Made by a program: the position numbers and the translations under genes
Notes under the pieces: model-generated
Databases searched by the model: none
Seen by the model: only the letters and a program-made list of their open reading frames with translations
Told to the model about the DNA's origin: nothing
In this document: piece after piece, positions 657 to 62,208 of the stretch
Position numbering within the stretch: the first letter of the stretch is position 1
How the letters are laid out: each line of letters starts with the position of its first letter
DNA from: a bacterium HR34
Lineage (GTDB): Bacteria > Patescibacteriota > Minisyncoccia > Minisyncoccales > HRBIN34
NCBI GenBank assembly: GCA_002923395.1
Contig: BEIK01000002.1
Span: 1,965 to 65,964 of the forward strand
DNA length: 64,000 bases
Direction of reading: 5' to 3'

Positions 657-3600
657 ATGTTTACCAACGAAATAGAACTTCAAATTTTAAAATTTTGGAA
701 AGATAAGGATATTTTTAAAAAAAGTCTGCGAAAAAATAAAGGCAGGAAAAATTTTGTTTTTTATGAAGGTCCGCCAACAGCAAACGGAAAGCCCGGAATA
801 CATCATATTTTAGCGAGAAGTTTTAAGGATGTTATTTGCCGATTCAAAACAATGAAAGGTTTTTATGTTTTGAGAAGAGGCGGTTGGGATACCCATGGAT
901 TACCAGTAGAACTCGAAGTTGAAAAGAAACTTGGCTTGGAAAATAAAAGAGATATAGAAAGGTTTGGAATTAAAAAATTTAATGAGATGTGTAGGCAGTC
1001 TGTTTGGGAATATAAAACAGAGTGGGAAAAACTTACAGAGAGAATGGCTTACTGGATTGATTTGGAGAACGCTTACATAACTTATGATCCGAATTACATT
1101 GAAAGCGTTTGGTATATTTTAAGTTTTCTTTACAAAAAAGGGTATTTGCAAAAAGGTTATAAAGTTTTGCCATATTGCCCGAGATGCGGCACGCCCTTGT
1201 CTTCTCATGAGGTTGCGCTTGGTTATAAAAAGGTAAAGGATAAATCAATTTATGTGAAGTTTGAAATTAAAGATAAAGAGTTTGCTAAAAAATTAGGTTT
1301 TCAAGAAGAAAAAATTTACTTAATTATTTGGACAACCACTCCGTGGACCTTGCCGGCAAACGTGCTGGTCGCCGGAAATAAAAATATAAAATACGTTGCC
1401 GTAAAAGTTGGCAACGAAGTTTATATTTTAAGCAAAAAAGCAAAAGATAGCATTTTTCCAGATATTAGCGACGAGAAAGAGATTGATTCAAAAAATTTAT
1501 ATAACTTAGAGTACAAACCTCCTTATAATGTTTTGGAAAGTTTTAATGTTAAACCAAAAAGATCACATTATGTTGTTTTTGCTGATTATGTAAGCGATGA
1601 GGATGGTTCTGGTTTTGTGCACATAGCGCCGGCATTTGGGCAGGAAGATATGGATGTGGTTGAAAAAGAAAACAAAAAAAATAAAGTTAATTTGCCTGTT
1701 TTAATTACGCTTGAAGACGATGGTGCTTTCAAGAAAATAAAAGGGTTAGAATTTATTGAGGGAAAATTTGTAAAAGAAGCAGATCCCTTAATTGTGCAGG
1801 ATTTACAAAACAAAAAACTTTTATTGAAAGAACAGGTGATAGAGCATGAGTACCCTTTTTGTTGGAGGTGCAAAAGCCCTTTGCTGTATTTTGCTAGAGA
1901 TTCTTGGTTTGTAAAGACAACTTTAATAAAAGATAAAATAATAAAAAACAACAAAACCATAAGTTGGGTACCAACTCACTTGAAGGAAGGGAGATTTGGA
2001 GAGTGGCTAAAAGATCTTAAAGATTGGGCTATCTCAAGAGAAAGATATTGGGGTACTCCTTTACCAATATGGATATGCGAAAAATGCGGCAATCAAAAGG
2101 TTTTATCAAGTAAAAGTGATATTGAAAAACAAAAATTTACAACGAATACCTTTTATATTTTAAGGCATGGCCAGTCCCTTAGAAATGTTTATAATTTTGT
2201 TTCATGCTGGCCGGAAGTAAGAAAATCTCCTTTAACAAAAGAGGGTATAGCGCAGGCTAAAGAAGCAGGAAAAAAATTAAAAGGGAAAATTGATATTATT
2301 TTCACCTCTGATTTAGAAAGGACAATGCAAACTGCTCAAATAGTTGCTGAAGAAACAGGCTGCAAAGTTTTGCTGGCGAAAGAATTAAGAGAGGTAAATG
2401 AGGGCATATTTAACGGCAAAAAAACAATAGAAGTTTTTAGGTATTTTACCAAAAAATACGGTAAAGAATTGTCAAAAGAAGAATATTATCTAATGAGGTT
2501 TAGAGAAAAGGTACCAGGAGGTGAGAGTTTGTCAGAGTTACAAAAAAGAGTTTTAAGTTTTATAAAGCGCATAAACAAAAAATATAAAAACAAAAGAATA
2601 CTTCTTGTTTCTCATGAGTTGCCTTTAACAATTTTGGAATGTTCAATGAAGGGAATGAGTCCTATTGAAATAATTAAATTTAGAGAAAAGAAAATGATAA
2701 AAACAGCCGAAGTTAGAAAAATAGATTTTAAGATACTTCCATATAATGATAATTCTGAAATTGATTTTCACCGTCCGTATATAGATGAGGTTGAGTTTTT
2801 GTGTGATAATTGTTCTTCTTTAATGAAAAGAGTTCCTGATGTTTTGGATTGTTGGTTTGATAGCGGTTCTATGCCATTCGCTCAGTGGCACTACCCTTTT
2901 GAAAATAAAGATTTAATAGACAAAAGAAAACAGTTCCCAGCAGATTATATTTCAGAGGCGATAGATCAAACAAGAGGATGGTTTTATACTCTTTTGGCTG
3001 TGTCAACATTTTTGAAAGGCGTGGCTCCTTACAAAAATGTTGTTTCTTTGGGGCACGTTTTAGATGAGAAGGGAGAAAAAATGTCAAAATCAAAAGGTAA
3101 TGTTGTTGATCCTTGGCAAATGGCTCAAAAATATACAATTGATTCTGTTAGGTGGTATTTTTTTACAGTTAATCAGCCGGGAGAACCAAAACTTTTTTCG
3201 GAAAAAGCATTGGAGGCGGTTTACAAAAAATTTATTTTAACAACTTTTAATGTAATTAATTTTTTAAAGCTTTACTCAAACGAAAAAGTAAAAATTCAAA
3301 CTAATTTTTCTAAAAATAACAACATTCTTGATAAATGGATTTTATCGAAAATTAATTCTTTAACTTTTGAGGTTACAAAAGATTTGGAAAGTTATAAAAT
3401 AGTCGATGCTGCAAGAAAAATAGAAAATTTTGTTGTGGACGATTTATCTCAATGGTATGTTAGAAGATCTCGCGACAGATTTAGGGAAAGCGGAAGTGAC
3501 TTTAATACTGCTTTTTCTGTTTTATTTTTGGTTTTAAAGAAGTTATCTATTGTTATGGCGCCTTTCGTTCCGTTTTTAGGAGAATATGTTTATCAACAGT

Positions 3601-4223
3601 TAAAAAATATAAACGAAAAAGGTTTTAAAGAAAGTGTGCACTTGGAAAATTACTTTAAGCCGAATAGGAAACTCATAAACAAAAAACTTGAGTTGAATAT
3701 GGAGAAAATAAGAGAATTGGTAAATGTTGGTTTGAATTTAAGACAAAAAGCAAAAATAAAAGTAAGGCAACCACTTTTGGAAATTTATTTACACGAGTCA
3801 TTGAGGAAAATCGTAGACAAAGATATGCAAGAAATTCTGAAAGGAGAACTTAATGTTAAGAGGATAGTGTTTTTTAAAGATAGAAATGAGATCAAAAAAG
3901 ATAAAGTTACCGAGAGCGACGAGAATAAAGATATTCTATTGAATATTGAAATAACACCTGAGCTTCAAAATGAAGGCGAGATTAGGGAGTTTGTTAGGAA
4001 TATTCAGAATATAAGAAAGAAAATGGCTTTGATTCCAAAGGACTTAATAATAATTGAAGTTTCTGGAGACGAAAAGAGCAAAGAGTTTATAGAAATGAAC
4101 AAAGAGGTTTTGAAGGAAGTTTTGAAGGCAAAGGATTTAGTGTTTTATGACAATTTAACAGGAAAATATGATACAATATCAATTGGAGATAAAAAGTTTA
4201 ATATTAAAATTAAATTAGTATAA
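657..4223 (+). CDS. ileS: Isoleucyl-tRNA synthetase carrying an inserted histidine-phosphatase-like domain
   Basis: HIGH region (GKPGIHHILARS), KMSKSKGN, WAISRERYWGTPLPIW, DFHRPYID...DCWFDSGSMP; about 215 extra residues with RHG...SHE phosphatase motifs between the last two blocks. Confidence 0.9.
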   Translation: MFTNEIELQILKFWKDKDIFKKSLRKNKGRKNFVFYEGPPTANGKPGIHHILARSFKDVICRFKTMKGFYVLRRGGWDTHGLPVELEVEKKLGLENKRDIERFGIKKFNEMCRQSVWEYKTEWEKLTERMAYWIDLENAYITYDPNYIESVWYILSFLYKKGYLQKGYKVLPYCPRCGTPLSSHEVALGYKKVKDKSIYVKFEIKDKEFAKKLGFQEEKIYLIIWTTTPWTLPANVLVAGNKNIKYVAVKVGNEVYILSKKAKDSIFPDISDEKEIDSKNLYNLEYKPPYNVLESFNVKPKRSHYVVFADYVSDEDGSGFVHIAPAFGQEDMDVVEKENKKNKVNLPVLITLEDDGAFKKIKGLEFIEGKFVKEADPLIVQDLQNKKLLLKEQVIEHEYPFCWRCKSPLLYFARDSWFVKTTLIKDKIIKNNKTISWVPTHLKEGRFGEWLKDLKDWAISRERYWGTPLPIWICEKCGNQKVLSSKSDIEKQKFTTNTFYILRHGQSLRNVYNFVSCWPEVRKSPLTKEGIAQAKEAGKKLKGKIDIIFTSDLERTMQTAQIVAEETGCKVLLAKELREVNEGIFNGKKTIEVFRYFTKKYGKELSKEEYYLMRFREKVPGGESLSELQKRVLSFIKRINKKYKNKRILLVSHELPLTILECSMKGMSPIEIIKFREKKMIKTAEVRKIDFKILPYNDNSEIDFHRPYIDEVEFLCDNCSSLMKRVPDVLDCWFDSGSMPFAQWHYPFENKDLIDKRKQFPADYISEAIDQTRGWFYTLLAVSTFLKGVAPYKNVVSLGHVLDEKGEKMSKSKGNVVDPWQMAQKYTIDSVRWYFFTVNQPGEPKLFSEKALEAVYKKFILTTFNVINFLKLYSNEKVKIQTNFSKNNNILDKWILSKINSLTFEVTKDLESYKIVDAARKIENFVVDDLSQWYVRRSRDRFRESGSDFNTAFSVLFLVLKKLSIVMAPFVPFLGEYVYQQLKNINEKGFKESVHLENYFKPNRKLINKKLELNMEKIRELVNVGLNLRQKAKIKVRQPLLEIYLHESLRKIVDKDMQEILKGELNVKRIVFFKDRNEIKKDKVTESDENKDILLNIEITPELQNEGEIREFVRNIQNIRKKMALIPKDLIIIEVSGDEKSKEFIEMNKEVLKEVLKAKDLVFYDNLTGKYDTISIGDKKFNIKIKLV

Positions 4224-4226
4224 AAT

Positions 4227-4493
4227 ATGCCATTACAAAATTGGTCAACACCTTTAAAATTATATCATTTGAAAAAAATTATAGAAGAGGCAAAAAGCAA
4301 ATTTGTTATATCGTATGGAGATAAAAAAAAGTTTATTAACTTTATAGAAGATAAAATAAAAAGTAAGGGTAAAAATTATTTGAGTGAAGATATTGTAAAA
4401 GATTTGAGGGATGATATAAGAGATTGGGAGGAGAATAAAAAAACATATAATAAATATTTAAAATTTTTTGATGAGTTGTTAAGTAAGTTGTAG
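4227..4493 (+). CDS. Hypothetical small Lys/Glu-rich protein
   Basis: 88-aa ORF tightly packed between ileS and recO; no family recognised. Confidence 0.4.
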   Translation: MPLQNWSTPLKLYHLKKIIEEAKSKFVISYGDKKKFINFIEDKIKSKGKNYLSEDIVKDLRDDIRDWEENKKTYNKYLKFFDELLSKL

Positions 4494-4498
4494 TGGTT

Positions 4499-5203
4499 AT
4501 GTATTTCACTTATAAAACAAAAGCTTTTATATTGCATCAAGAAGATTCTGGAGAAGCAGATAGAATTTTAAGTTTGTATACAAAAGATTATGGTTTAATT
4601 GAAGTTGTTGCTAAAGGAGAGAGAAAATTAACATCGAAATTAAGAGCGTTTTTGCAGCCTTTTTCTTTGTGTGATGTTGAATTTGTGCAAGGAAAAAACG
4701 CAAAAACTGTAATTGACTCTCAGGTTATAGAAGATTTTTATTTTGTGAAAAAAAATTTGCAAAAACTTGTTTGCGCCACAAATATATCGAATATTATATT
4801 AAAAACAATAACAGATTCACAAAAAGATGATAATGTTTGGTCTTTGATTTTGATTGCTTTTAGTTTATTAGATAAAATAAACAGCGAAACCGATATAAAA
4901 ATTCTTTATTATTTTTTCGTTATTAAATTTTTGTCTTTAACAGGTTATCACATAGATATTTTTAAGTGTTCTGTTTGCGGAGGAAAATTATCAAAAGAAT
5001 GTTATCTTTCTTTTTTTGACAAAAATGTTGTTTGCTTTAATTGTAGAAAGTCGTCAAAAGATAATGTTAAAATAGATTTTGAAACAATGATAGTGTTAAA
5101 ATATATTTTAAGATCTCAAATTCAAGCGCTTTTAGGATTGCCCTTAAATGAAAATCATTTTAAAAAATTAGATTTAATATCAAAGCAATACATTGAAATA
5201 TGA
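4499..5203 (+). CDS. recO: DNA repair protein RecO
   Basis: N-terminal OB-fold pattern (KTKAFILHQEDSGEADRILSLYTKDYG) and C-terminal CxxC...CxxC zinc module; ATG at 4499 preferred over the track start at 4493. Confidence 0.8.
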   Translation: MYFTYKTKAFILHQEDSGEADRILSLYTKDYGLIEVVAKGERKLTSKLRAFLQPFSLCDVEFVQGKNAKTVIDSQVIEDFYFVKKNLQKLVCATNISNIILKTITDSQKDDNVWSLILIAFSLLDKINSETDIKILYYFFVIKFLSLTGYHIDIFKCSVCGGKLSKECYLSFFDKNVVCFNCRKSSKDNVKIDFETMIVLKYILRSQIQALLGLPLNENHFKKLDLISKQYIEI

Positions 5204-22979: not shown

Positions 22980-23050
22980 TGCGGGGTGGACCAGTAGTAG
23001 GTCGCCAGTCTCATAAGCTGGAGGCCCAGGTGCAATTCCTGGCCCCGCAA
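22980..23050 (+). tRNA. tRNA with CAU anticodon (Met; initiator, elongator or Ile2 identity unresolved)
   Basis: Hand-folded cloverleaf: acceptor TGCGGGG/CCCCGCA, D stem GACC/GGTC (A11:U24), anticodon loop CTCATAA, T arm CCAGG-TGCAATT-CCTGG; no encoded CCA. Confidence 0.85.
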
Positions 23051-23057
23051 CAAATTT

Positions 23058-23085
23058 ACCCGCCTTAAATTGTGGCGGGTTTTAT
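23058..23085 (+). terminator. Rho-independent terminator-like hairpin
   Basis: ACCCGCC - 9-nt loop - GGCGGGT followed by TTTAT. Confidence 0.55.
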
Positions 23086-23109
23086 GTTATAGTATTATTG
23101 TAGTTTTAA

Positions 23110-23182
23110 GCCGGCGTAGCTCAGTGGTTAGAGCAGGGGCATCATAAGCCCAAGGTCGCGGGTTCAAATCCTGCCGCCGGCA
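23110..23182 (+). tRNA. Second tRNA with CAU anticodon (Met or Ile2)
   Basis: Acceptor GCCGGCG/CGCCGGC, D arm GCTC-AGTGGTTA-GAGC, anticodon loop ATCATAA, T arm GCGGG-TTCAAAT-CCTGC; no encoded CCA. Confidence 0.88.
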
Positions 23183-23185
23183 CTA

Positions 23186-23207
23186 GATTTGAACCCGACA
23201 GAGGGGA
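23186..23207 (+). repeat. tRNA-trailer motif: inverted copy of the preceding T arm plus GAACCCGACAGAGGGG
   Basis: GATTTGAACCCG is the exact reverse complement of T-arm bases 23159-23170; GAACCCGACAGAGGGG resembles the start of the 124-nt module at 23893, 24363, 24526 and 24689. Confidence 0.6.
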
Positions 23208-23223
23208 TAATAAACAAATTTTT

Positions 23224-23790
23224 ATGTTAATTTATTTCATAACTTCTAATTCTAAAAAATTTAATGAAGTTAAAGAGTTTTTTAAAGATGTAAAAAATAT
23301 TCAGATAAAGAGAATAAATTTAGATATTCCCGAGATTCAATCAGTTGAGGTTAAAGAAATTGTAAAATTCAAGATTAATTACGTTCTTAAAAATTATAAT
23401 TTTAAAAATTTTTTAGTAGAAGATACAGGTTTTTATATAAAGTGTTTAAATTATTTGCCAGGTCCTTTTATAAAATGGTTCTTACTTTCAATCCGCTCTA
23501 AGGGTTTATATGAGATTTGCAATTTTTACAGAAATTATAAAGCAGAAGTAAAAATAGCTCTCGGATTAAGATTAAAAAACAAAAGTTATATTTTCAAAGG
23601 TAGCGTTAAAGGAAGAGTTGTAAAGCCAAAGAAGCGTTTATCTAACAGTGAGATATGGTGGGATAATATTTTTATGCCGGAAGGTTTTAGTAGAACTTTT
23701 AGTGAAATGAGTTCAGAAGAAAAAAATTTAATAAGTCACAGAGGAAAGGCATTAAGAAAATTGAAAAATTTTTTAATAAAAATAAAATAA
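23224..23790 (+). CDS. rdgB: Non-canonical purine NTP pyrophosphatase (RdgB/HAM1 family)
   Basis: ITSNSKKFNEV, EDTG, ISHRGKAL motifs of the Ham1 fold. Confidence 0.8.
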   Translation: MLIYFITSNSKKFNEVKEFFKDVKNIQIKRINLDIPEIQSVEVKEIVKFKINYVLKNYNFKNFLVEDTGFYIKCLNYLPGPFIKWFLLSIRSKGLYEICNFYRNYKAEVKIALGLRLKNKSYIFKGSVKGRVVKPKKRLSNSEIWWDNIFMPEGFSRTFSEMSSEEKNLISHRGKALRKLKNFLIKIK

Positions 23791-23810
23791 TAGAATATAT
23801 GGCGGCCGTA

Positions 23811-23883
23811 GCTTAAAGGTAAAGCATCAGGCTGTGGCCCTGAGGACTACGGGTTCGAGTCCCGTCGGCCGCCCAAGGCGAAA
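23811..23883 (+). tRNA. tRNA-His (GUG) with encoded G-1
   Basis: G-1 + GCGGCCG/CGGCCGC + C73, anticodon arm TCAGG-CTGTGGC-CCTGA, T arm ACGGG-TTCGAGT-CCCGT. Confidence 0.93.
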
Positions 23884-23888
23884 ACCCC

Positions 23889-24012
23889 ACAGAGGGGGTC
23901 GGGGAGATTGGGTATCTCCCCGTGAAGGAAAATAGCTCCGACTTTATGTCGGAGCGCAAGAAACCATGGGTTTCTTGGGAGCGAAGCGACGGGTTCGAGT
24001 CCCGTCGGCCGC
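23889..24012 (+). repeat. 124-nt GC-rich hairpin module, copy A (tRNA-His-linked); candidate structured ncRNA or miniature mobile element
   Basis: 121/124 identical to copies at 24359-24482 and 24522-24645; contains three 8-bp inverted repeats and ends in GGGTTCGAGTCC. Confidence 0.85.
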
Positions 24013-24025
24013 CCAGCAGAAAGAT
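23999..24025 (+). repeat. Duplicated 3' end of tRNA-His (T arm + acceptor 3' strand + CCA-position bases), orphan fragment
   Basis: ACGGGTTCGAGTCCCGTCGGCCGCCCA is identical to 23859-23885, 140 nt upstream. Confidence 0.9.
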
Positions 24026-24164
24026 TCCATATAAGGCGTTAGGGAGACCTTGATTTAGGTCTAGGAACAGGTTGAATATCTTCTTCCGTATGACAACAGG
24101 CAGATCAATCATTATATAGGTAGGTCCAGTCATATTCCAGTATACACAAAAAATGGAAGGGTGC

Positions 24165-24250
24165 CGGAGTGGTCTAACGGAACGGCCTGGAGAGCCGTGC
24201 CTCCTTGTGGGGCTCGTGGGTTCAAATCCCACCCCTTCCGCATAATTGTC
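24165..24250 (+). tRNA. tRNA-Ser (GGA), long variable arm
   Basis: Acceptor GGAAGGG/CCCTTCC, anticodon arm ACGGC-CTGGAGA-GCCGT, long variable arm, T arm GTGGG-TTCAAAT-CCCAC. Confidence 0.9.
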
Positions 24251-24257
24251 CCCGTAG

Positions 24258-24330
24258 TTCAACAGGATAGAACGAGTCCCTCCTAAGGACTAAATGGGGG
24301 TTCGAGTCCTCCCGGGGACACCGAGCAAAG
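24258..24330 (+). tRNA. tRNA-Arg (CCU)
   Basis: Acceptor GTCCCCG/CGGGGAC, anticodon arm AGTCC-CTCCTAA-GGACT, T arm GGGGG-TTCGAGT-CCTCC. Confidence 0.92.
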
Positions 24331-24358
24331 CGAGGTGGCAACCGGAGACGAGAACCCC

Positions 24359-24482
24359 ACAGAGGGGGTCGGGGAGATTGGGTATCTCCCCGTGAAGGAA
24401 AATAGCTCCGACATTATGTCGGAGCGCAAGAAACCGTGGGTTTCTTGGGAGCGAAGCGACGGGTTCGAGTCCTCCCGGGGAC
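24359..24482 (+). repeat. 124-nt hairpin module, copy B (tRNA-Arg-linked)
   Basis: Same core as 23889-24012. Hairpins: 24381-88/24394-401, 24415-22/24428-35, 24438-45/24449-56. Confidence 0.85.
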
Positions 24483-24521
24483 ACCGAGCAAAGCGAGGTG
24501 GCAACCGGAGACGAGAACCCC

Positions 24522-24645
24522 ACAGAGGGGGTCGGGGAGATTGGGTATCTCCCCGTGAAGGAAAATAGCTCCGACATTATGTCGGAGCGCAAGAAACCGT
24601 GGGTTTCTTGGGAGCGAAGCGACGGGTTCGAGTCCTCCCGGGGAC
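24522..24645 (+). repeat. 124-nt hairpin module, copy C
   Basis: Identical to copy B, offset by 163 nt. Confidence 0.85.
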
Positions 24646-24771
24646 ACCGAGCAAAGCGAGGTGGCAACCGGAGACGAGAACCCCACAGAGGGGGTCAAGA
24701 AAATTTAGATACAAGATATGAATAGCAAATTACAAGTTTAATATTGAAAAAACCAAATTTAAAAATTATTA

Positions 24772-24800
24772 TTGAATTTATCTTATTAATTTGTTATATT
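24772..24800 (+). promoter_or_regulatory. Candidate promoter for tRNA-Asp
   Basis: TTGAAT, 17-nt spacer, TATATT; 15 nt upstream of the tRNA. Confidence 0.35.
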
Positions 24801-24815
24801 TATTATGTAAAATAT

Positions 24816-24890
24816 GGACCCGTGGTGTAGCCCGGTTAACACGCCTCCCTGTCACGGAGGAGATCGAGGGTTCAAATCCCTTCGGGTCCG
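24816..24890 (+). tRNA. tRNA-Asp (GUC)
   Basis: Acceptor GGACCCG/CGGGTCC, anticodon arm CCTCC-CTGTCAC-GGAGG, T arm GAGGG-TTCAAAT-CCCTT. Confidence 0.92.
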
Positions 24891-24916
24891 CGGTAATTAA
24901 AATATAAATTAAAAAT

Positions 24917-50090: not shown

Positions 50091-50111
50091 CAAATTATAC
50101 ACATTAACAAT

Positions 50112-50258
50112 ATGGCAAGATTTGTTGATATAGAAACTCCATATTCGGGATATTTAGGGAATAATGAAGAAGAAATCAAACGGAATCTTCTTTATGCTAG
50201 AATGTGCACAAGAGGCAGTTTGTTGCATATAGAAATACCTTCATTCTCGAGAACATGA
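50112..50258 (+). pseudogene. Truncated ORF fragment (48 codons); resembles the N-terminus of phage/plasmid-borne nucleoside-deoxyribosyltransferase-like (DUF4406-type) proteins
   Basis: MARFVDIETPYSGY...NLLYARMCTRGSLL... ends prematurely; family recall is from memory and tentative. Confidence 0.3.
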
Positions 50259-50321
50259 GAATATTATTTAGGATAATTTCTTTTATATTTTTATTTTTCC
50301 TTTAAAGTAGTCAAGAAAATT

Positions 50322-50756
50322 TTACTTTAAAAATTGAGTAAATTCTTTCATTTCTTTTTGGTATAGTTTTATTTTTTCTTCTCTTTTTTCTTCCGGGATT
50401 ACTGATAATATTTCATTTCCTATAGATGCTAATTTAAATCCATAACCGATCGGGTTTATACCAAGCATAACATCATAATCTACTTTTCTATTCTCGTAAA
50501 AACATACTTAAAAGATTTATGACCATCTTTTGATATTCTAAAACTTTTCTTTCAACATCTTTTCTTACTCATACCAATTTTCAATCAAAGGTTCTTCTGG
50601 TTTTATTAATATCCATGGTCCTATCTGTCTGTCTTTTTCAAAATGTCCTTCACAAGATTGCACTGTTCTTATTTTATAAGCATTGAGCATTATAACAGTT
50701 TCTTTAATATTTTCTTCTATTTTCATACCCAGATTATCTCTTAGATTTTCTACCAT
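50322..50756 (-). pseudogene. Disrupted gene of unknown function (63-codon head plus out-of-frame 53-codon tail)
   Basis: The ORF at 50565-50756 ends in TAA, followed in-frame by EKMLKEKF then another stop. A further open segment VDYDVMLGINPIGYGF...QFLK (50322-50483) lies on the same strand in another frame. Confidence 0.4.
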
Positions 50757-50938
50757 ATTTTTTATTTTGTTTAATTATTCTTGAGCTTTCTCATTCCATT
50801 CTTCTTTTACTACTCTTTCTTTAGGATTGTATTTTTCTCCTTCCATAATGTTATAATATTTGTTGATTTTTATAATTTTATAATGTAACCTTTATTTATT
50901 AAATTTTATTATAAACCTTTTCTTAAATCAAAACTTTT

Positions 50939-56008: not shown

Positions 56009-57367
56009 ATGGATGCTCTTTCCATTTTACAATTTTTGCAATATGTGTCTAGTTTAGTAAAACCAATAAAAGAATTTCTCATGAATTTTTTAATAGATTG
56101 GTGGTGGTTAATTGCGCCTTTTATCCTATGGAGACCTTTTTATTTGTTATGGCATTGGTGGAGAAATGAAATTTTCTTTTCTTATATAAAGTTTGTTTTT
56201 CTGGAGGTTATTCTTCCAAAAGAAACAAAAAAACCTTTAAGGGCAATGGAGCAGGTTATAAGTAGTATATGGGGTAGTGTTTATGATCCTCCAGATTGGT
56301 GGGAAGAGCATATAGAAGGTAAGGTTATTTTAAGTGTAGTTTTTGAGATTATAAGTTTGGAGGGTAAAATTCATTTTTTTATAAGGGTGCCAGAACGCGC
56401 TAGGGCAGGCGTAGAATCATCTATTTATTCTCAATATCCTGACGCTGAAATCATAGAAGTAGACGATTACACAAAATATGTTCCTCAGGACATTCCAAAT
56501 AAAGATTGGGATTGCTGGGGTTTCGACGTCCAACTTTTAAAACCAGAAGTTTATCCAATTAGGACCTATGAAATGTTTTTTGAGGAAAGACCTGAAACAA
56601 CAGAAGAAAAAAGATTAGACCCTCTCTCTCCACTTTTAGAGGGTATGACAAAATTAAATAAAGGAGAGCATATGTGGCTTCAAATAGTAGTAAAGCCAAT
56701 AGCGCCGGCAGATTATCCTTATCCAGAAATTGGCAAAAAAGAAGTAAATAAATTAATGAAAAGAGTTAAGGAAGAAAAAAAAGGAACTAAAAGTTTAATA
56801 GAAATGATAATAGATGAATTTATTTTTTTGTTTACAGGCAAAAAGCCTCCAACAGAAGCTCAAAAATCTGCTGAAACAAGCGCGCTTTTTACAGAGTATA
56901 TTTTTGGCTTAACAGAGGACGAAAGAAAAGTTATAGCAGCGATAGAGAAGAAAGTAAGTAAATTTTGTTTTATGGGATTTATAAGGTTCTTGCATGTATA
57001 TAAAAGAGATTCTGTTAGTACCGCTGCAAAACCTGTAGTTATTGGTTTTCTTGAGTCATTATCAACAACAAACCTAAATACAATGAAGCCTTGGGGTGAA
57101 ACTATCACAAAGGTTCATAAACACTGGTTCTTACCTTACAATTTATTTTTACCACGACTTTTATATCTTAAAAAAAGAAAAATGTTTAATAATTATATGA
57201 TGAGAGTGCCACCTAAATTTCCAAACCCCGGAGGGACATTCATTTTAAATACCGAAGAATTAGCAACATTATTTCATTTCCCAAGCAGAGACATATCGCC
57301 AGTGCCGTTTATTAGGAGAGTTGAGGCTACGAAAGGAATACCCCCTTCAACTATACCATTAGAATAA
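56009..57367 (+). CDS. Hypothetical Trp-rich membrane-associated protein, probable partner of the downstream ATPase
   Basis: N-terminal hydrophobic/Trp-rich segment (FLIDWWWLIAPFILWRPFYLLWHWW); C-terminal EELATLFHFP motif; 4-nt gap to the next gene. Confidence 0.55.
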   Translation: MDALSILQFLQYVSSLVKPIKEFLMNFLIDWWWLIAPFILWRPFYLLWHWWRNEIFFSYIKFVFLEVILPKETKKPLRAMEQVISSIWGSVYDPPDWWEEHIEGKVILSVVFEIISLEGKIHFFIRVPERARAGVESSIYSQYPDAEIIEVDDYTKYVPQDIPNKDWDCWGFDVQLLKPEVYPIRTYEMFFEERPETTEEKRLDPLSPLLEGMTKLNKGEHMWLQIVVKPIAPADYPYPEIGKKEVNKLMKRVKEEKKGTKSLIEMIIDEFIFLFTGKKPPTEAQKSAETSALFTEYIFGLTEDERKVIAAIEKKVSKFCFMGFIRFLHVYKRDSVSTAAKPVVIGFLESLSTTNLNTMKPWGETITKVHKHWFLPYNLFLPRLLYLKKRKMFNNYMMRVPPKFPNPGGTFILNTEELATLFHFPSRDISPVPFIRRVEATKGIPPSTIPLE

Positions 57368-57371
57368 AAGT

Positions 57372-58985
57372 ATGATTTTAAAAGACATACAAGACAACAA
57401 ACTAATACCAAAAAAAGATCTTTGTATAATGGGAGAGATAAACTTTAGAAATACAAAGCGTCGTTTTGGAATAAAATTAGACGACAGAAGACGCCATATC
57501 TATAGTGTTGGTAAAACAGGTATGGGTAAAACAGAATTTTTAAAATCAATGGCAATTCAAGATATTTTGGTTGGCCACGGAGTTGCTTTTATTGACCCCC
57601 ATGGTGACGCTGCCGACTCCCTTTTAGATTTTATTCCAGAACAAAGGCAAAAAGATGTTATCTATTTTAATCCTTCTGATGTAGATTACCCTATTGCTTT
57701 TAACATAATGGAGAACGTTGACTACAAAAATAGGCATCTTGTTGCAGGTGGTCTTTTAGGGATATTTAAAAAACTTTGGCCTGATGTTTGGTCTCCAAGA
57801 ATGGAATATATTTTAAACAACTGCATTTTAGCTCTTTTGGAAACCCCAGACGCGACTCTTTTGGGAATAAACAAACTTTTAGCAAACGAAGAATACAGGA
57901 AAAAAGTTTTAACCTATGTTAAAGATCCTGTTGTAAAATCGTTCTGGTTGCAAGAATTTGCAAGGTACACCCAAAGATACGAAGTTGAAGCAACAGCAGC
58001 GGTTCAAAACAAAATAGGTCAATTCATTTCAATCCCCTTGATAAGAAATATTGTTGGTCAAAAACGTTCAACAATAGATATAAGAAAAATAATGGACGAA
58101 GGAAAAATTTTAATAGTAAATATATCAAAAGGAAAAATAGGCGAAGATCAATCAAACTTATTGGGCGGTTTAATAATTACAAAACTTCAATTGGCAGCAA
58201 TGTCTCGCGTTGACATACCAGAAGATGAGAGAAAAGATTTCTTTTTATATGTAGATGAGTTTCAAAACTTTGCTACCAAATCTTTTGCAACAATTTTATC
58301 AGAAGCGAGAAAATACCGCCTTTCCATTATTTTAACTCACCAATATATATCTCAAATGGAAGAGAGCGTAAGAGATGCCGTTTTTGGGAACGTTGGCACA
58401 ATTGTCTGTTTTAGAGTTGGAGCAGAAGACGCAGAATTTTTGCAAAAAGAATTCGACCCTGTTTTTACAGCAGAAGATCTTGTAAATCTTCCAAAGTATA
58501 ATATGTATGTAAAACTTATGGTAGATGGCGTAACTCAAAGGCCATTTTCGGCCCGAACCCTACCGCCTTTCAAACCGCCAGAATTATCATTTAGAAAAGA
58601 AGTAATAGAAAATTCAAGAAAGCAATACGCTGTTGAAAGAGAAAAAGTTGAAAAAGAAATACTTGCTTTTATAGGAGAGATAAAAGAACCGCCTCAAAGA
58701 TTGAAGTTATACGATGCCATTTGTTCAAACTGCGGTAGAAGAGAAAAGGTGCCGATTGACCCTTCTGTATCGCCGCCTCTTTGTAAATCCTGCCGAAAGA
58801 AAATGGGATTAAGGAAAGAACAAAAAATCCAAAATCAAGCAAGCAAAGCTAACACAATTTCAAATCAAGATAAAAAACCAGATTCTTCAGTTCAAGAACA
58901 ACGAGTTTCTCAAGAGCCACCGCAAGTACAACCGCCTATCAAAAAAGCAGGTTTATTAAAACCTGGCGATAAAGTAATTTTTTAA
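57372..58985 (+). CDS. VirD4/TraD/TraG-like (type IV coupling protein-like) P-loop ATPase with C-terminal zinc ribbon
   Basis: Walker A GKTGMGKT, Walker B FFLYVDEFQNF, THQYISQ sensor region, CSNCGR...CKSCRKK, Gln/Pro-rich tail; no N-terminal TM helices. Confidence 0.65.
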   Translation: MILKDIQDNKLIPKKDLCIMGEINFRNTKRRFGIKLDDRRRHIYSVGKTGMGKTEFLKSMAIQDILVGHGVAFIDPHGDAADSLLDFIPEQRQKDVIYFNPSDVDYPIAFNIMENVDYKNRHLVAGGLLGIFKKLWPDVWSPRMEYILNNCILALLETPDATLLGINKLLANEEYRKKVLTYVKDPVVKSFWLQEFARYTQRYEVEATAAVQNKIGQFISIPLIRNIVGQKRSTIDIRKIMDEGKILIVNISKGKIGEDQSNLLGGLIITKLQLAAMSRVDIPEDERKDFFLYVDEFQNFATKSFATILSEARKYRLSIILTHQYISQMEESVRDAVFGNVGTIVCFRVGAEDAEFLQKEFDPVFTAEDLVNLPKYNMYVKLMVDGVTQRPFSARTLPPFKPPELSFRKEVIENSRKQYAVEREKVEKEILAFIGEIKEPPQRLKLYDAICSNCGRREKVPIDPSVSPPLCKSCRKKMGLRKEQKIQNQASKANTISNQDKKPDSSVQEQRVSQEPPQVQPPIKKAGLLKPGDKVIF

Positions 58986-60092: not shown

Positions 60093-61277
60093 ATGCCAGG
60101 AGAAAATTTTTTAAAAAAAGCAGAAAAAATAAAAAACATAAAAAAGTTTGAAAAAGTATTTTTCGACGCCGTAAATAAAAACAAAAACATAGTTTTATAT
60201 TCTGACTCAGATCCAGACGGCGCTTGTTGTGCTGTTATATTAAAAGAAGCTCTTGAACTGCTTGGCAGAAAACCAAAAAAAGTTTATTTTCCAGATAGAG
60301 AAAAAGAAGGTTATGGTTTAAATTTTAGAGCAATCGAAAAACTTAAAAAGTACGCACCAGGCCTTTTAATTGTAACTGACTGCGGAACAACAAGCGTACA
60401 AGAAGTAGAACTTGCAAAAAAATACGGCTTTGAAGTTGCAATAATAGATCATCATGTTGTTTTTAGTAAAACACCAAGAGCGATTTTTATAAACCTCCAC
60501 CAAAAAGGAGACAAATTTTATTTCAAAGAATTGTGCGCCGCAGGACTGGTATATGTTATTGTTAAATACCTCTTTTTAAAAAACAAAATAAGTTTTTCAC
60601 CAGAAAGCTTTTTAGAACTTGCAATGCTCGCCACTATTGCTGATAGGGTTCCCCTTGTTTCATTAAATAAAGAAATTGTAGAGCAGGGAATAGAAGCTCT
60701 TAAAATAACCAAAAGGCCAGCCCTTAAAGTATTAAAAAATAAAACAAAACTAAGGCAGTATACCTTAGATAAAATAAATTACAAAATCGTTCATGTTTTG
60801 GGAGCTGGCTACAACGAAAGAAATATAAATAAAACCTACAAATTTTTAATTGAAAGAAATGATGAAAAATTAAATAAAATGTCAGACGAATTAACCCACA
60901 GTTTACAGGTTAAATATTATGAAATTCAAAGAATAGTAGATGAAGTAGAAGAAAGATTAAAAGTTAAAGGAATAAACGAATTTATTTTTGAAGGGTCTCA
61001 CGATTGGCAGCTTTTTTATTTAGGCCCTGCAGCCTCCCGTTTAATAGAAAAATATAAAGTTCCTGTTTTTCTTTACCACATCTTAAAAGATGTAAAAGAA
61101 GCAGTAGGCGCTGTTAGAAGTACAGACAAAATAGACAGTGTAAAAGCAATGCAAAATTGCAAAAAATACCTTTTGTTATATGGAGGCCATCCAAAAGCAT
61201 CTGGTTTCAGAATAAAAATTGAAAACCTTTCAGACTTTTATTATTGTCTTTTAAATTACATTAAGAAAAACAAATGA
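60093..61277 (+). CDS. recJ: DHH/DHHA1 family phosphoesterase (RecJ-like, short form)
   Basis: DSDPDG, VTDCG, IDHH, GGHPKASG motifs. Confidence 0.7.
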   Translation: MPGENFLKKAEKIKNIKKFEKVFFDAVNKNKNIVLYSDSDPDGACCAVILKEALELLGRKPKKVYFPDREKEGYGLNFRAIEKLKKYAPGLLIVTDCGTTSVQEVELAKKYGFEVAIIDHHVVFSKTPRAIFINLHQKGDKFYFKELCAAGLVYVIVKYLFLKNKISFSPESFLELAMLATIADRVPLVSLNKEIVEQGIEALKITKRPALKVLKNKTKLRQYTLDKINYKIVHVLGAGYNERNINKTYKFLIERNDEKLNKMSDELTHSLQVKYYEIQRIVDEVEERLKVKGINEFIFEGSHDWQLFYLGPAASRLIEKYKVPVFLYHILKDVKEAVGAVRSTDKIDSVKAMQNCKKYLLLYGGHPKASGFRIKIENLSDFYYCLLNYIKKNK

Positions 61278-61714
61278 AAAACGAAACACCAAAAAAATTA
61301 ATAGTCTACACAGATGGCTCCTCTCTTGGAAATCCCGGAAAATCAGCAATAGGGTTTGCCATATTTGATGATAAAGGAAACCTTATTAAAGAATACTCAC
61401 AAGAAATTGGAATAAAAACAAACAATGAAGCAGAATACGAAGCCCTACTCTTCGCTCTTAAAAAAATAAAACTTTTATTTGGAAAAGATAAAATTAAAAA
61501 TATAGAAATAGAAATAAGATCTGACAGCCAACTTATGACCTCTCAACTCCTTGGAAAATATAAAATTTTAGATGAAAAAATTAAAAATTTATTTATAGAA
61601 TTTTGGAACCTTAAAACAGATTTTGGTAAAATAACAATTACTCAAATACCACGAGAACAAAACAAATTAGCCGATGCCCTTTCCAAAAAACTTAAACAAC
61701 CAAACCTTTTTTAA
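61274..61714 (+). CDS. rnhA: Ribonuclease HI
   Basis: YTDGSSLGNPG, NNEAEYEAL, SDSQL, NKLADALS (DEDD catalytic pattern). Confidence 0.85.
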   Translation: MKNETPKKLIVYTDGSSLGNPGKSAIGFAIFDDKGNLIKEYSQEIGIKTNNEAEYEALLFALKKIKLLFGKDKIKNIEIEIRSDSQLMTSQLLGKYKILDEKIKNLFIEFWNLKTDFGKITITQIPREQNKLADALSKKLKQPNLF

Positions 61715-61791: not shown

Positions 61792-62199
61792 GTGGATGCT
61801 TTAAGGCAACCGCTTTCCGACTATTGTCGGAAAGAGGAAACTCCGGACATCCTGCTCCGATTTTTTCGTCGGAGTATAAAACCCTGCGGGTAAAGGCCCG
61901 CCGCCGTAAACTTATTGTAGTTTGCGGTAGGGGTGCGAACAGAGACGAGGTTGCCAGTAATGGCGCCTGTCCTTTTCGCTTCAAAATAATTTTGAAGCGA
62001 AAAGGAAAGCTCTGCGGTAACGCAGAGGTGAAACGGCTAAATCCCAGGGGGATGCAAGGCTAAAACCTGCTAAAAATCTAGCAGGTATGGGTAAGCCGCA
62101 ATGAGTGTTATGGGTAACCATAACACCAAGATAAATGGTTGCCACTCTTCCTGCTTGAAATAGGAAGAGCACAGAATCCGGGTTATTAAAGCTTCCACA
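61792..62199 (+). ncRNA. rnpB: RNase P RNA (bacterial type A-like)
   Basis: P1 pairing GTGGATGCTTTAA / TTAAAGCTTCCAC, conserved AGAGGAAACTCCGGAC (CR-I/P4) and CACAGAATCCGGGTTAT (CR-V/P4); GC-rich island in AT-rich DNA. Confidence 0.9.
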
Positions 62200-62208
62200 A
62201 AATAGACC

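Follow-up and report, generated by a model that had tools for sequence, protein, structure and literature searches.

RtT-like hairpin modules behind tRNA genes: a putative duplicative element family in Patescibacteria-type genomes

A 64-kb stretch of the genome of bacterium HR34 (the window), located on a 68.6-kb contig, carries, behind its genes for tRNA-His and tRNA-Arg, short GC-rich modules made of three hairpins flanked by copies of the neighboring tRNA sequence. We read them as a duplicative element family residing in tRNA operons, similar to the RtT repeats of Escherichia coli and probably transcribed and excised by tRNA-processing enzymes. We give this reading about an even chance of being correct. 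Comparison with related and distant sequences (L001, L002, L003, L013–L031, L032 and L034) shows that two distant Patescibacteria-type lineages carry family members, behind four tRNAs in all (His, Arg, Glu and Leu). The kind of element is already known, if obscure, and what is new is its mobility across tRNA species and its occurrence in distant phyla. Such elements seem to be far more widespread and mobile than thought.

The preliminary description of this DNA reported a 124-nt core in three copies, one behind tRNA-His and two behind tRNA-Arg. The sequences and motifs it gave were right, but all of its coordinates exceed the true ones by 10 nt. The start motif CGA[A/G]AACCCCACAGAGGGGGTC lies at 23879, 24349, 24512 and 24675, and the end motif GCGAAGCGACGGGTTCGAGTCC finishes at 24002, 24472 and 24635. 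The 22-nt beginning of a fourth core does exist, but it had been placed at 24685–24706 (see Table 1 for its position). The two Arg cores are identical to each other, and the His core differs from them, as described, at three of 124 positions (23882 A/G, 23943 T/A and 23966 A/G), the second of which falls in the loop of hairpin 2 and the third in the loop of hairpin 3. The three inverted repeats, described as 8-bp stems, are indeed perfect, with lengths of 9, 8 and 9 bp for hairpins 1, 2 and 3. The core is GC-rich as claimed, with 56% GC compared to 31% for the whole window, and the module motifs did not occur once in 100 shuffles. The tRNA T-arm noticed at the 3′ end is also present, but it is not generic: together with what follows, it duplicates the whole 3′ part of the local tRNA without a mismatch.

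The 124-nt core is the middle of a larger element of 140–177 nt located in the trailers of tRNA genes. In the window the unit measures 140 nt at tRNA-His and 163 nt at tRNA-Arg. Every unit ends in an exact copy of the local tRNA 3′ part, and full-length units start with an inverted copy. A full unit is headed by the tRNA 3′ part itself (from the T-arm to the discriminator or CCA), a short linker, the inverted copy and A(N)(N)GGGGGTC. The remainder consists of three GC-rich hairpins with a conserved GTGNNGGAAA junction and GGGAGCGAAGCGAC, after which the tRNA 3′ part is repeated exactly and the native trailer begins. At tRNA-Arg the order is a 25-nt tRNA 3′ part, the loop GAGCAAAGCGA, the inverted copy, ACAGAGGGGGTC and a 91-nt core, behind which the tRNA-Arg 3′ part returns each time as GGGTTCGAGTCCTCCCGGGGACACC (25 nt plus spacer); the array stops after the third ACAGAGGGGGTC. 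The score of the imperfect inverted copy found here was equalled in 7 of 2000 shuffles. Complementarity of the left part of the His unit to tRNA-His is not significant, and its CGAAAACCCC is, to judge from the letters, a truncated remnant of the Arg-type inverted copy. Behind the second tRNA-Met there is a solo left part, without a core, in which 12 nt of the T-arm of the same tRNA recur inverted and without mismatch (GATTTGAACCCG) ahead of ACAGAGGGG; none of 2000 shuffles scored as high as this inverted copy. The solo left part is found also in L001 (2718–2740) and is kept in both strains.

A scan of a genome collection returned one true homologue, L003. This is a Niyogibacteria-like metagenome-assembled genome (MAG) whose record is labelled Saccharibacteria but whose L19 protein groups with Niyogibacteria. 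Behind its tRNA-Glu an inverted copy of about 20 nt of the Glu T-arm/acceptor strand is followed by GGGGGTC, three hairpins and GGGAGCGAAGCGAC, and the unit ends in a 24-nt exact duplicate of the Glu 3′ part. A more diverged copy lies behind tRNA-Leu on the same contig (27.3 bits, E 3e-5 with R1, a covariance model built from the modules). It is composed of a 16/16 inverted copy, AGGGGTC, hairpin 1, GTGGCGGAAA, two further hairpins and a 17-nt copy of the Leu tail. Both tRNA-end copies at this site read CCA, whereas the native gene in relatives ends in ...GCGCACAC (CAC) and not in CCA. The L003 copy is reproduced in L032, an independent Logan assembly. In about 20 relatives of L003 (L013–L031; L19 85–94% identical) the Glu and Leu sites are empty. 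Inverted copies are significant for the second tRNA-Met, Glu, Leu and Arg. When about 80 tRNA loci were scanned for an inverted repeat of the tRNA tail in the 130 nt behind the gene, only element-bearing tRNAs, the Met solo and E. coli tyrT/tyrV showed one.

The L003 contig has other features that are recorded here in their own right. At 4432–4579 there is a mirror-image event at a tRNA 5′ end, where a 43-nt direct repeat brackets a 62-nt GC-rich insert of two hairpins. The repeat consists of the promoter and first 10 nt of tRNA-Leu and includes GAGCGAAGCGA, and the insert is absent from relatives such as L013. A second insert after the Leu element, module B (4834–4951), is closed by the stem AAATTCACCCCG/CGGGGTGAATTT and extends to the native junction GCGCA|CACTTGAC. 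The family model matches it weakly on the minus strand (19 bits, E 0.0045), and it may be an inverted family member. A 256-aa open reading frame (ORF) at 3159–3929, beginning 20 nt past the Glu element, is absent from all relatives and gave only a weak match, to a fungal tRNA-ligase phosphodiesterase domain (E 0.0038). The gap between tRNA-Glu and rplS is a variable islet that holds this ORF in L003, an 86-aa ORF in L013 and nothing in L024.

The cores of the window and of L003-Glu are about 90% identical, and their alignment shows that the three hairpins have been kept by compensatory substitutions. All 81 cells pair: three pairs have changed at both positions, no pair has changed at one position alone, and none has been lost. 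In slid controls 32–52% of cells pair. The shuffle control, made with three distinct sequences, is weak, the observed score being reached in 22 of 500 shuffles. Two more compensatory pairs are hidden by alignment gaps. The changes are G-C to A-U in hairpin 1 (together with a gap-hidden U-A to C-G), U-A to C-G in hairpin 2 and A-U to C-G in hairpin 3. The Leu copy retains the three-hairpin layout with largely different stem sequences, and the GCGAAGC + GAC right end shows no change between the window and L003 lineages. The closing helix that folding predicts, in which the inverted copy pairs with the tRNA-tail copy downstream, would comprise about 20 bp at Glu and at least 9 bp at Leu, and would be imperfect at Arg. 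Three wobble pairs, two in the Glu closing helix and one in Leu hairpin 3, are G-U on the tRNA strand and A-C on the other. Because they pair only on the plus strand, the plus strand is favored as the folded strand.

These wobbles bear on the idea that the minus strand is functional, with hairpin 2 and the following UAUUUUCC either working as an intrinsic terminator or forming the 3′ end of a short RNA antisense to the tRNA tail. Terminator-like sites are indeed found at hairpin 2 in all three copies (23955–23935, 24425–24405 and 24588–24568), and their U-rich tract is complementary to the GGAAAA junction, a conserved stretch that L003 has too. However, the Glu closing-helix and Leu hairpin 3 wobbles would be mismatches in such an RNA, no minus-strand promoter was found beside the copies, and the duplicated tRNA tails would be left unexplained. 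We give this idea hardly any credence.

A relic attachment region was among the candidates of the preliminary description. It explains the direct repeats but neither the covarying core nor the inverted copy. The modules would then be decayed attL/attR scars of larger prophages or islands, without function or mobility of their own. That the repeats consist of the tRNA 3′ part and that the tRNA-Glu to rplS gap is variable would be consistent with this. On the other hand, the same 91-nt core occurs with the same boundaries at two tRNAs (121 of 124 positions identical), and a distant lineage has it at about 90% identity with compensatory changes. Scars that decayed independently would not be expected to arrive at one core. 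We regard this reading as very improbable.

Close strains differ in their modules. L001 and L034 are 99–99.5% identical to the window, yet they have no modules behind His and Arg. In both, the native trailer directly follows tRNA-His, an empty site, and at tRNA-Arg there is a single 72-nt segment (tRNA tail, loop, inverted copy and ACAGAGGGGGTC) without the core. The L002 contig, from a third sample, begins within the repeat, which is what an array in that sample would lead one to expect. Tandem amplification with change of copy number and presence or absence between close strains are directly visible. Of the 66 mismatches that separate the window from L001, 40 cluster at 23000–24360 together with 16 nt of indels, with one change in tRNA-Ser, and this region looks like a recombination tract carrying the modules. 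The polymorphism is real, but given this apparent tract a fresh insertion in this strain is not required. In a walk through Ham1 homologues the identity falls from 95% to 49%, and by this measure the window lineage is barely sampled.

The core had been called unrecognised, which is correct at the level of sequence, since an Rfam scan with the laxest filters gave no family match, none reaching even E ≤ 10 on the modules, but not as to its kind, because E. coli RtT has the same architecture. What the preliminary description had named as grounds for giving up its proposal did not appear: no Rfam family matched, homologues were found and no stem was broken. In the window only tRNA and RNase P pass the Rfam gathering threshold, and the sub-threshold matches Hrs1, LAGLIDADG-2 and osmY are generic hairpins. 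No covariance model of known self-cleaving ribozymes, tmRNA, Y-RNA-like or other Rfam families matched the modules. The RtT model (RF00391, tyrT-tyrV operon; gathering threshold 45 bits) scored 133–137 bits on four E. coli units, and on 2 kb of the module region and on slices of 171–173 nt it gave no match at E ≤ 10 and nothing above its gathering threshold. In the reverse direction R1 scored 12.7 bits (rough E 0.005 in 3 kb) on a single one of the four RtT units, a weak match that is colinear and has the correct orientation, and found nothing in the other units.

If the modules are RtT-like elements, a unit would be transcribed together with its tRNA operon, on the same strand and without a promoter of its own; a promoter-like site is present before tRNA-His and none inside the modules. 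The inverted copy is predicted to pair with the downstream copy of the tRNA tail, giving a closing helix with a tRNA-like single-stranded tail. By analogy with RtT, RNase P acting on the 5′ side, together with 3′ trimming and CCA addition, would release a stable RNA of about 125–140 nt. Unequal crossing-over between the repeated tRNA tails could alter the copy number, homologous recombination could carry copies between strains, and a new tRNA might be seeded by a recombination or copying step for which the conserved GGGTTCGA of the T-loop serves as the anchor. The first candidate of the preliminary description, a tRNA-linked RNA released by tRNA-processing enzymes, is in line with this scheme and gains support from the compensatory changes and from the RtT analogy.

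Several observations weigh against this scheme. The His copy has no convincing inverted copy or closing helix. Co-transcription of the Leu copy would be limited by a strong terminator-like hairpin that lies between it and tRNA-Leu. With 4–8 nt, the single-stranded tails that follow the closing helix exceed those of ideal model substrates of RNase P. In the window and Glu copies the stems are all Watson–Crick and GCGAAGC is best known as a DNA hairpin, and there is room for a role as single-stranded DNA. The polymorphism between the window and L001 lies within a 1.4-kb tract of raised divergence and may reflect one recombination import rather than fresh insertions. Finally, homology with RtT is unproven as far as sequence comparison goes, and the inner helices differ.

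Part of the evidence could also be explained by integration. The modules might be miniature non-autonomous integrative elements, each a circle of 140–177 nt that is double-stranded or, more plausibly, a folded single strand. The tRNA 3′ copy would then be the attachment site, the inverted copy would mimic the duplex target as in CTX-phi or attC, and a tyrosine recombinase from elsewhere would insert the circle at the T-loop. This would regenerate the tRNA and leave attL/attR-like repeats, and tandem arrays would result from repeated integrations. The repeats are of the attL/attR type and include the 3′ end of the target tRNA, spanning from the T-arm to the tRNA end with a length that depends on the site (24, 25 or 72, and 27 nt), and a tandem array exists. 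In L003 the Leu copies end in CCA instead of the native CAC, and a foreign terminator hairpin follows copy 1, as if it were element-borne. Direct repeats that start in the T-arm, the Leu CCA and this foreign terminator fit site-specific recombination at the T-loop. The closing helix also sets ...GAAC opposite GTTC..., like the AAC/GTT boxes of attC. Tiny size, stems that are all Watson–Crick and the GCGAAGC motif, an extra-stable DNA mini-hairpin (PMC13037366), would favor a folded single-stranded substrate. However, a Pfam scan of window ORFs of at least 130 aa and of seven L003 ORFs detected no integrase, transposase or relaxase, and there were no matches in viral contigs, phages or plasmids. 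The His copy combines His-specific repeats with an Arg-type left part, for which a circle model needs extra repair steps, and solo left parts are not predicted. To our knowledge no integrative element is so small. Integration of this type appears rather unlikely.

Retro-insertion is a further option. Here an element RNA with a T-loop-like 3′ end (...GCGAAGCGACGGGUUCGA) would anneal to a nicked T-loop and prime on the target for reverse transcription, with variable cleavage of the second strand producing variable duplications and truncated or extended left ends. The right junction (...GCGAAGCGAC|GGGTTCGA) is fixed in His, Arg and Glu, whereas the left ends vary, the His unit being about 25 nt short, and the duplication length ranges from 24 to 72 nt. 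A fixed right end with a variable left end and duplication length fits a target-primed mechanism of this sort, as does the CCA that the inserted Leu copies have and the native gene in relatives lacks, an argument that comes from one locus. The window ORFs of at least 130 aa scanned with Pfam included no reverse transcriptase, only an RNase H (61274–61714). In addition, the duplicated His tail is the genomic CCCA and not a full mature CCA end, and locally matching inverted copies would need extra template jumps. Retro-insertion is accordingly quite improbable.

A mobile element aimed at T-loops had also been put forward in the preliminary description, and the empty sites, the four tRNAs and the two distant lineages support it. 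We tentatively extend this idea, as a possibility that we would on balance doubt: the modules, and by extension RtT, could be unrecognised miniature mobile elements that copy into tRNA T-arms via a folded single strand of DNA or RNA. Their inverted and direct copies would mimic the target, and a recombinase or reverse transcriptase would mobilise them. The same construction with an unrelated core, at four or more tRNAs and in two distant streamlined bacteria, and polymorphic between strains of 99% identity, suggests a general process that builds or moves such elements and is still active. Covariation, empty and filled sites and solo remnants provide a comparative handle on this process, the origin and role of the elements become testable, and experiments become concrete. 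There are also practical consequences, as the modules split short-read assemblies at tRNA loci (L002, L032) and the partial tRNA copies that they make can mislead annotation.

Other searches for relatives gave little. Exact and degenerate pattern scans of viral contigs returned no matches, and BLAST against phages and plasmids returned nothing meaningful. A metagenome scan with GAGCGAAGCGACGGGTTCRA, a pattern that is too specific, gave seven matches, all of which fall by chance in GC-rich coding DNA away from any tRNA. Spurious ORFs called on modules were sought with a concatenated six-frame pseudo-protein as query, which had no match. Literature searches found no tRNA-linked mini-element in Patescibacteria.

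Some simpler explanations were rejected. A tRNA intron or split tRNA does not apply because the upstream tRNA is already complete without the insert, and for a tRNA-like RNA with its own acceptor stem the acceptor strand has no 5′ partner. A known ribozyme, tmRNA or Y RNA has no Rfam match, and an assembly artefact is contradicted by the agreement of independent assemblies. A protein-coding module was dismissed since the ORFs are not conserved between lineages. As a separate observation, a basic 50-aa ORF (MSERKKPW...RGGRGDWVSPREGK) crosses the Arg array at 24411–24563 on the plus strand; it is not conserved in L003 and is probably spurious.

Table 1. Positions of the module components and adjoining tRNA genes in the window
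Feature	Position	Strand	Evidence or remark
Solo left part behind second tRNA-Met (23110–23183)	23186–23206	+	inverted copy + ACAGAGGGG
tRNA-His(GTG), intact	23802–23874	+	ARAGORN; Rfam tRNA 70.8 bits
His direct-repeat copy 1 = tRNA-His 3′ part	23849–23875	+	repeat analysis; 27 nt, exact duplicate of 23989–24015
His unit left part, AGG + CGAAAACCCC + ACAGAGGGGGTC (hairpin 0, CCCC/GGGG)	23876–23900	+	sequence
124-nt core, His copy	23879–24002	+	behind tRNA-His
Hairpin 1, CGGGGAGAT/ATCTCCCCG, 9 bp	23900–23922; also 24370–24392, 24533–24555	+	inverted repeats
Conserved single-stranded junction TGAAGGAAAATA (family consensus GTGNNGGAAA)	23923–23934	+	alignments, pattern matches
Hairpin 2, GCTCCGAC/GTCGGAGC, 8 bp	23935–23955; also 24405–24425, 24568–24588	+	inverted repeats
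Hairpin 3, CAAGAAACC/GGTTTCTTG, 9 bp	23957–23977; also 24427–24447, 24590–24610	+	inverted repeats
Core right end, GCGAAGC mini-hairpin + GAC	23981–23990; also 24451–24460, 24614–24623	+	sequence
His copy 2 of tRNA-His 3′ part (ACGGGTTCGAGTCCCGTCGGCCGCCCA), then native trailer	23989–24015	+	repeat analysis
tRNA-Arg(CCT), intact	24248–24322	+	ARAGORN; Rfam
Tandem array, 163-nt unit x 2.4, 100% identity	24298–24696	+	Tandem Repeats Finder
Imperfect inverted copy of tRNA-Arg 3′ part, GGTGGCAACCGGAGACGAGAACCCC	24334–24358; repeats 24497–24521, 24660–24684	+	19/26 positions
124-nt core, Arg copy 1	24349–24472	+	model R1 135.5 bits
124-nt core, Arg copy 2	24512–24635	+	sequence match; model R1 search
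Partial fourth core start, 22 nt	24675–24696	+	behind tRNA-Arg

ARAGORN places six tRNA genes within 22980–24891. The surrounding window is a housekeeping region with aminoacyl-tRNA synthetases, a ribosomal protein operon, SecY, ClpB and RNase H. At 657–4223 it encodes an isoleucyl-tRNA-synthetase-like protein of 1188 aa, in which a histidine-phosphatase-superfamily domain (PF00300, E 1e-34) is inserted at residues 500–676. The RNase P RNA (bacterial type A, 61794–62200) barely exceeds its Rfam threshold, with 102 bits against 100, and its 407 nt compared with 367 model positions suggest that it is unusual or insert-bearing. The genome is otherwise tightly packed, but the segment of about 850 nt that follows tRNA-Gly (50092–50938) contains only ORFs of 48–63 aa on both strands and may be a decayed insertion beside the tRNA. 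An ORF resembling type IV secretion coupling proteins (57372–58985, TrwB/TraG domains) lies among the housekeeping genes and adjoins an unassigned 452-aa ORF (56009–57367).

The closest known counterpart of the modules is RtT, which has counted since the late 1970s as a curiosity of a single E. coli operon, obscure in origin and role. Its 178-nt unit is repeated 3.1 times, and RtT occupies one to ten places per E. coli genome. The unit ends with the last 19 nt of tRNA-Tyr, and about 100 nt upstream of this direct copy GGGGAAGGAT is the reverse complement of the tRNA-Tyr T-stem/acceptor strand. The Rfam consensus contains the same inverted/direct pair, as a closing helix GGGGAAGGAU/AUCCUUCCCC followed by CACCACCA. 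A single repeat unit of the tyrT operon is reported to give rise to the RNA rttR (PMC3318445, citing Bosl & Kersten 1991), and its release by tRNA-processing enzymes is described as well (PMC3318445; bioRxiv 2024.07.17.603846).

Like RtT, the modules occupy a trailer or spacer within a tRNA operon and have the orientation of the tRNA, and their length of 140–177 nt is close to the 178 nt of the RtT unit. In both, a direct copy of the tRNA 3′ part closes the unit (27 nt for His, 25 for Arg, 24 for Glu, 17 for Leu and 19 for E. coli Tyr), and an inverted T-stem/acceptor copy lies about 100 nt upstream; the two pair in the Rfam consensus of RtT and are predicted to do so in the Glu, Leu and Arg modules, though not in the truncated His copy. 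The offsets of the inverted and direct copies are +60/+160 in E. coli, +30/+142 at Glu and +44/+161 at Leu. Both form tandem arrays (3.1 and 2.4 copies) whose copy number varies between strains, with 2.4 copies in the window and none in L001 and L034, and both have a GCGAAGCG motif near the right end. The annotated 'protamine-like' tpr ORF inside the RtT repeats is even resembled by the very basic ORF through the Arg array. In contrast, there is no significant sequence or covariance-model match in either direction, and the modules have three adjacent hairpins where RtT has nested helices. The duplicate starts in the 5′ strand of the T-stem (position ~51–53) in the modules and at the end of the T-loop in RtT. 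Modules occur behind His, Arg, Glu and Leu, with a remnant at Met, in Patescibacteria-type genomes, whereas RtT is found only at tRNA-Tyr in Enterobacteria.

With tRNA-integrating elements and CIMEs, which are att-flanked elements that lost their integrase (PMC5704250), the modules share direct repeats of the tRNA 3′ part that leave the gene intact and the accretion of units in tandem at one tRNA (PMC5704250). The modules are 10–100 times smaller, lack coding capacity and a nearby integrase, and have, besides an inverted copy of the target, a core of hairpins that is conserved and covaries.

The attC sites of integrons and the attP site of CTX-phi are imperfect hairpins of about 60–140 nt with inverted boxes (…AAC / GTT…) and a variable, sometimes branched center. 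Paired boxes around a hairpin center and arrays of units are reminiscent of the modules, but the module boxes are the tRNA T-loop and its complement and there are no cassette ORFs; we know of no integron integrase or attI that would belong to them.

Finally, miniature inverted-repeat transposable elements (MITEs) and REPINs are, like the modules, short, non-coding, hairpin-forming, strain-variable and multi-copy. The modules differ in having no terminal inverted repeats of their own, the sole inverted repeat being derived from the target and matching the local tRNA, and in duplications of 24–72 nt that always consist of the tRNA tail instead of a fixed short target sequence. They also have no GTAG-type REP head and no RAYT or transposase.

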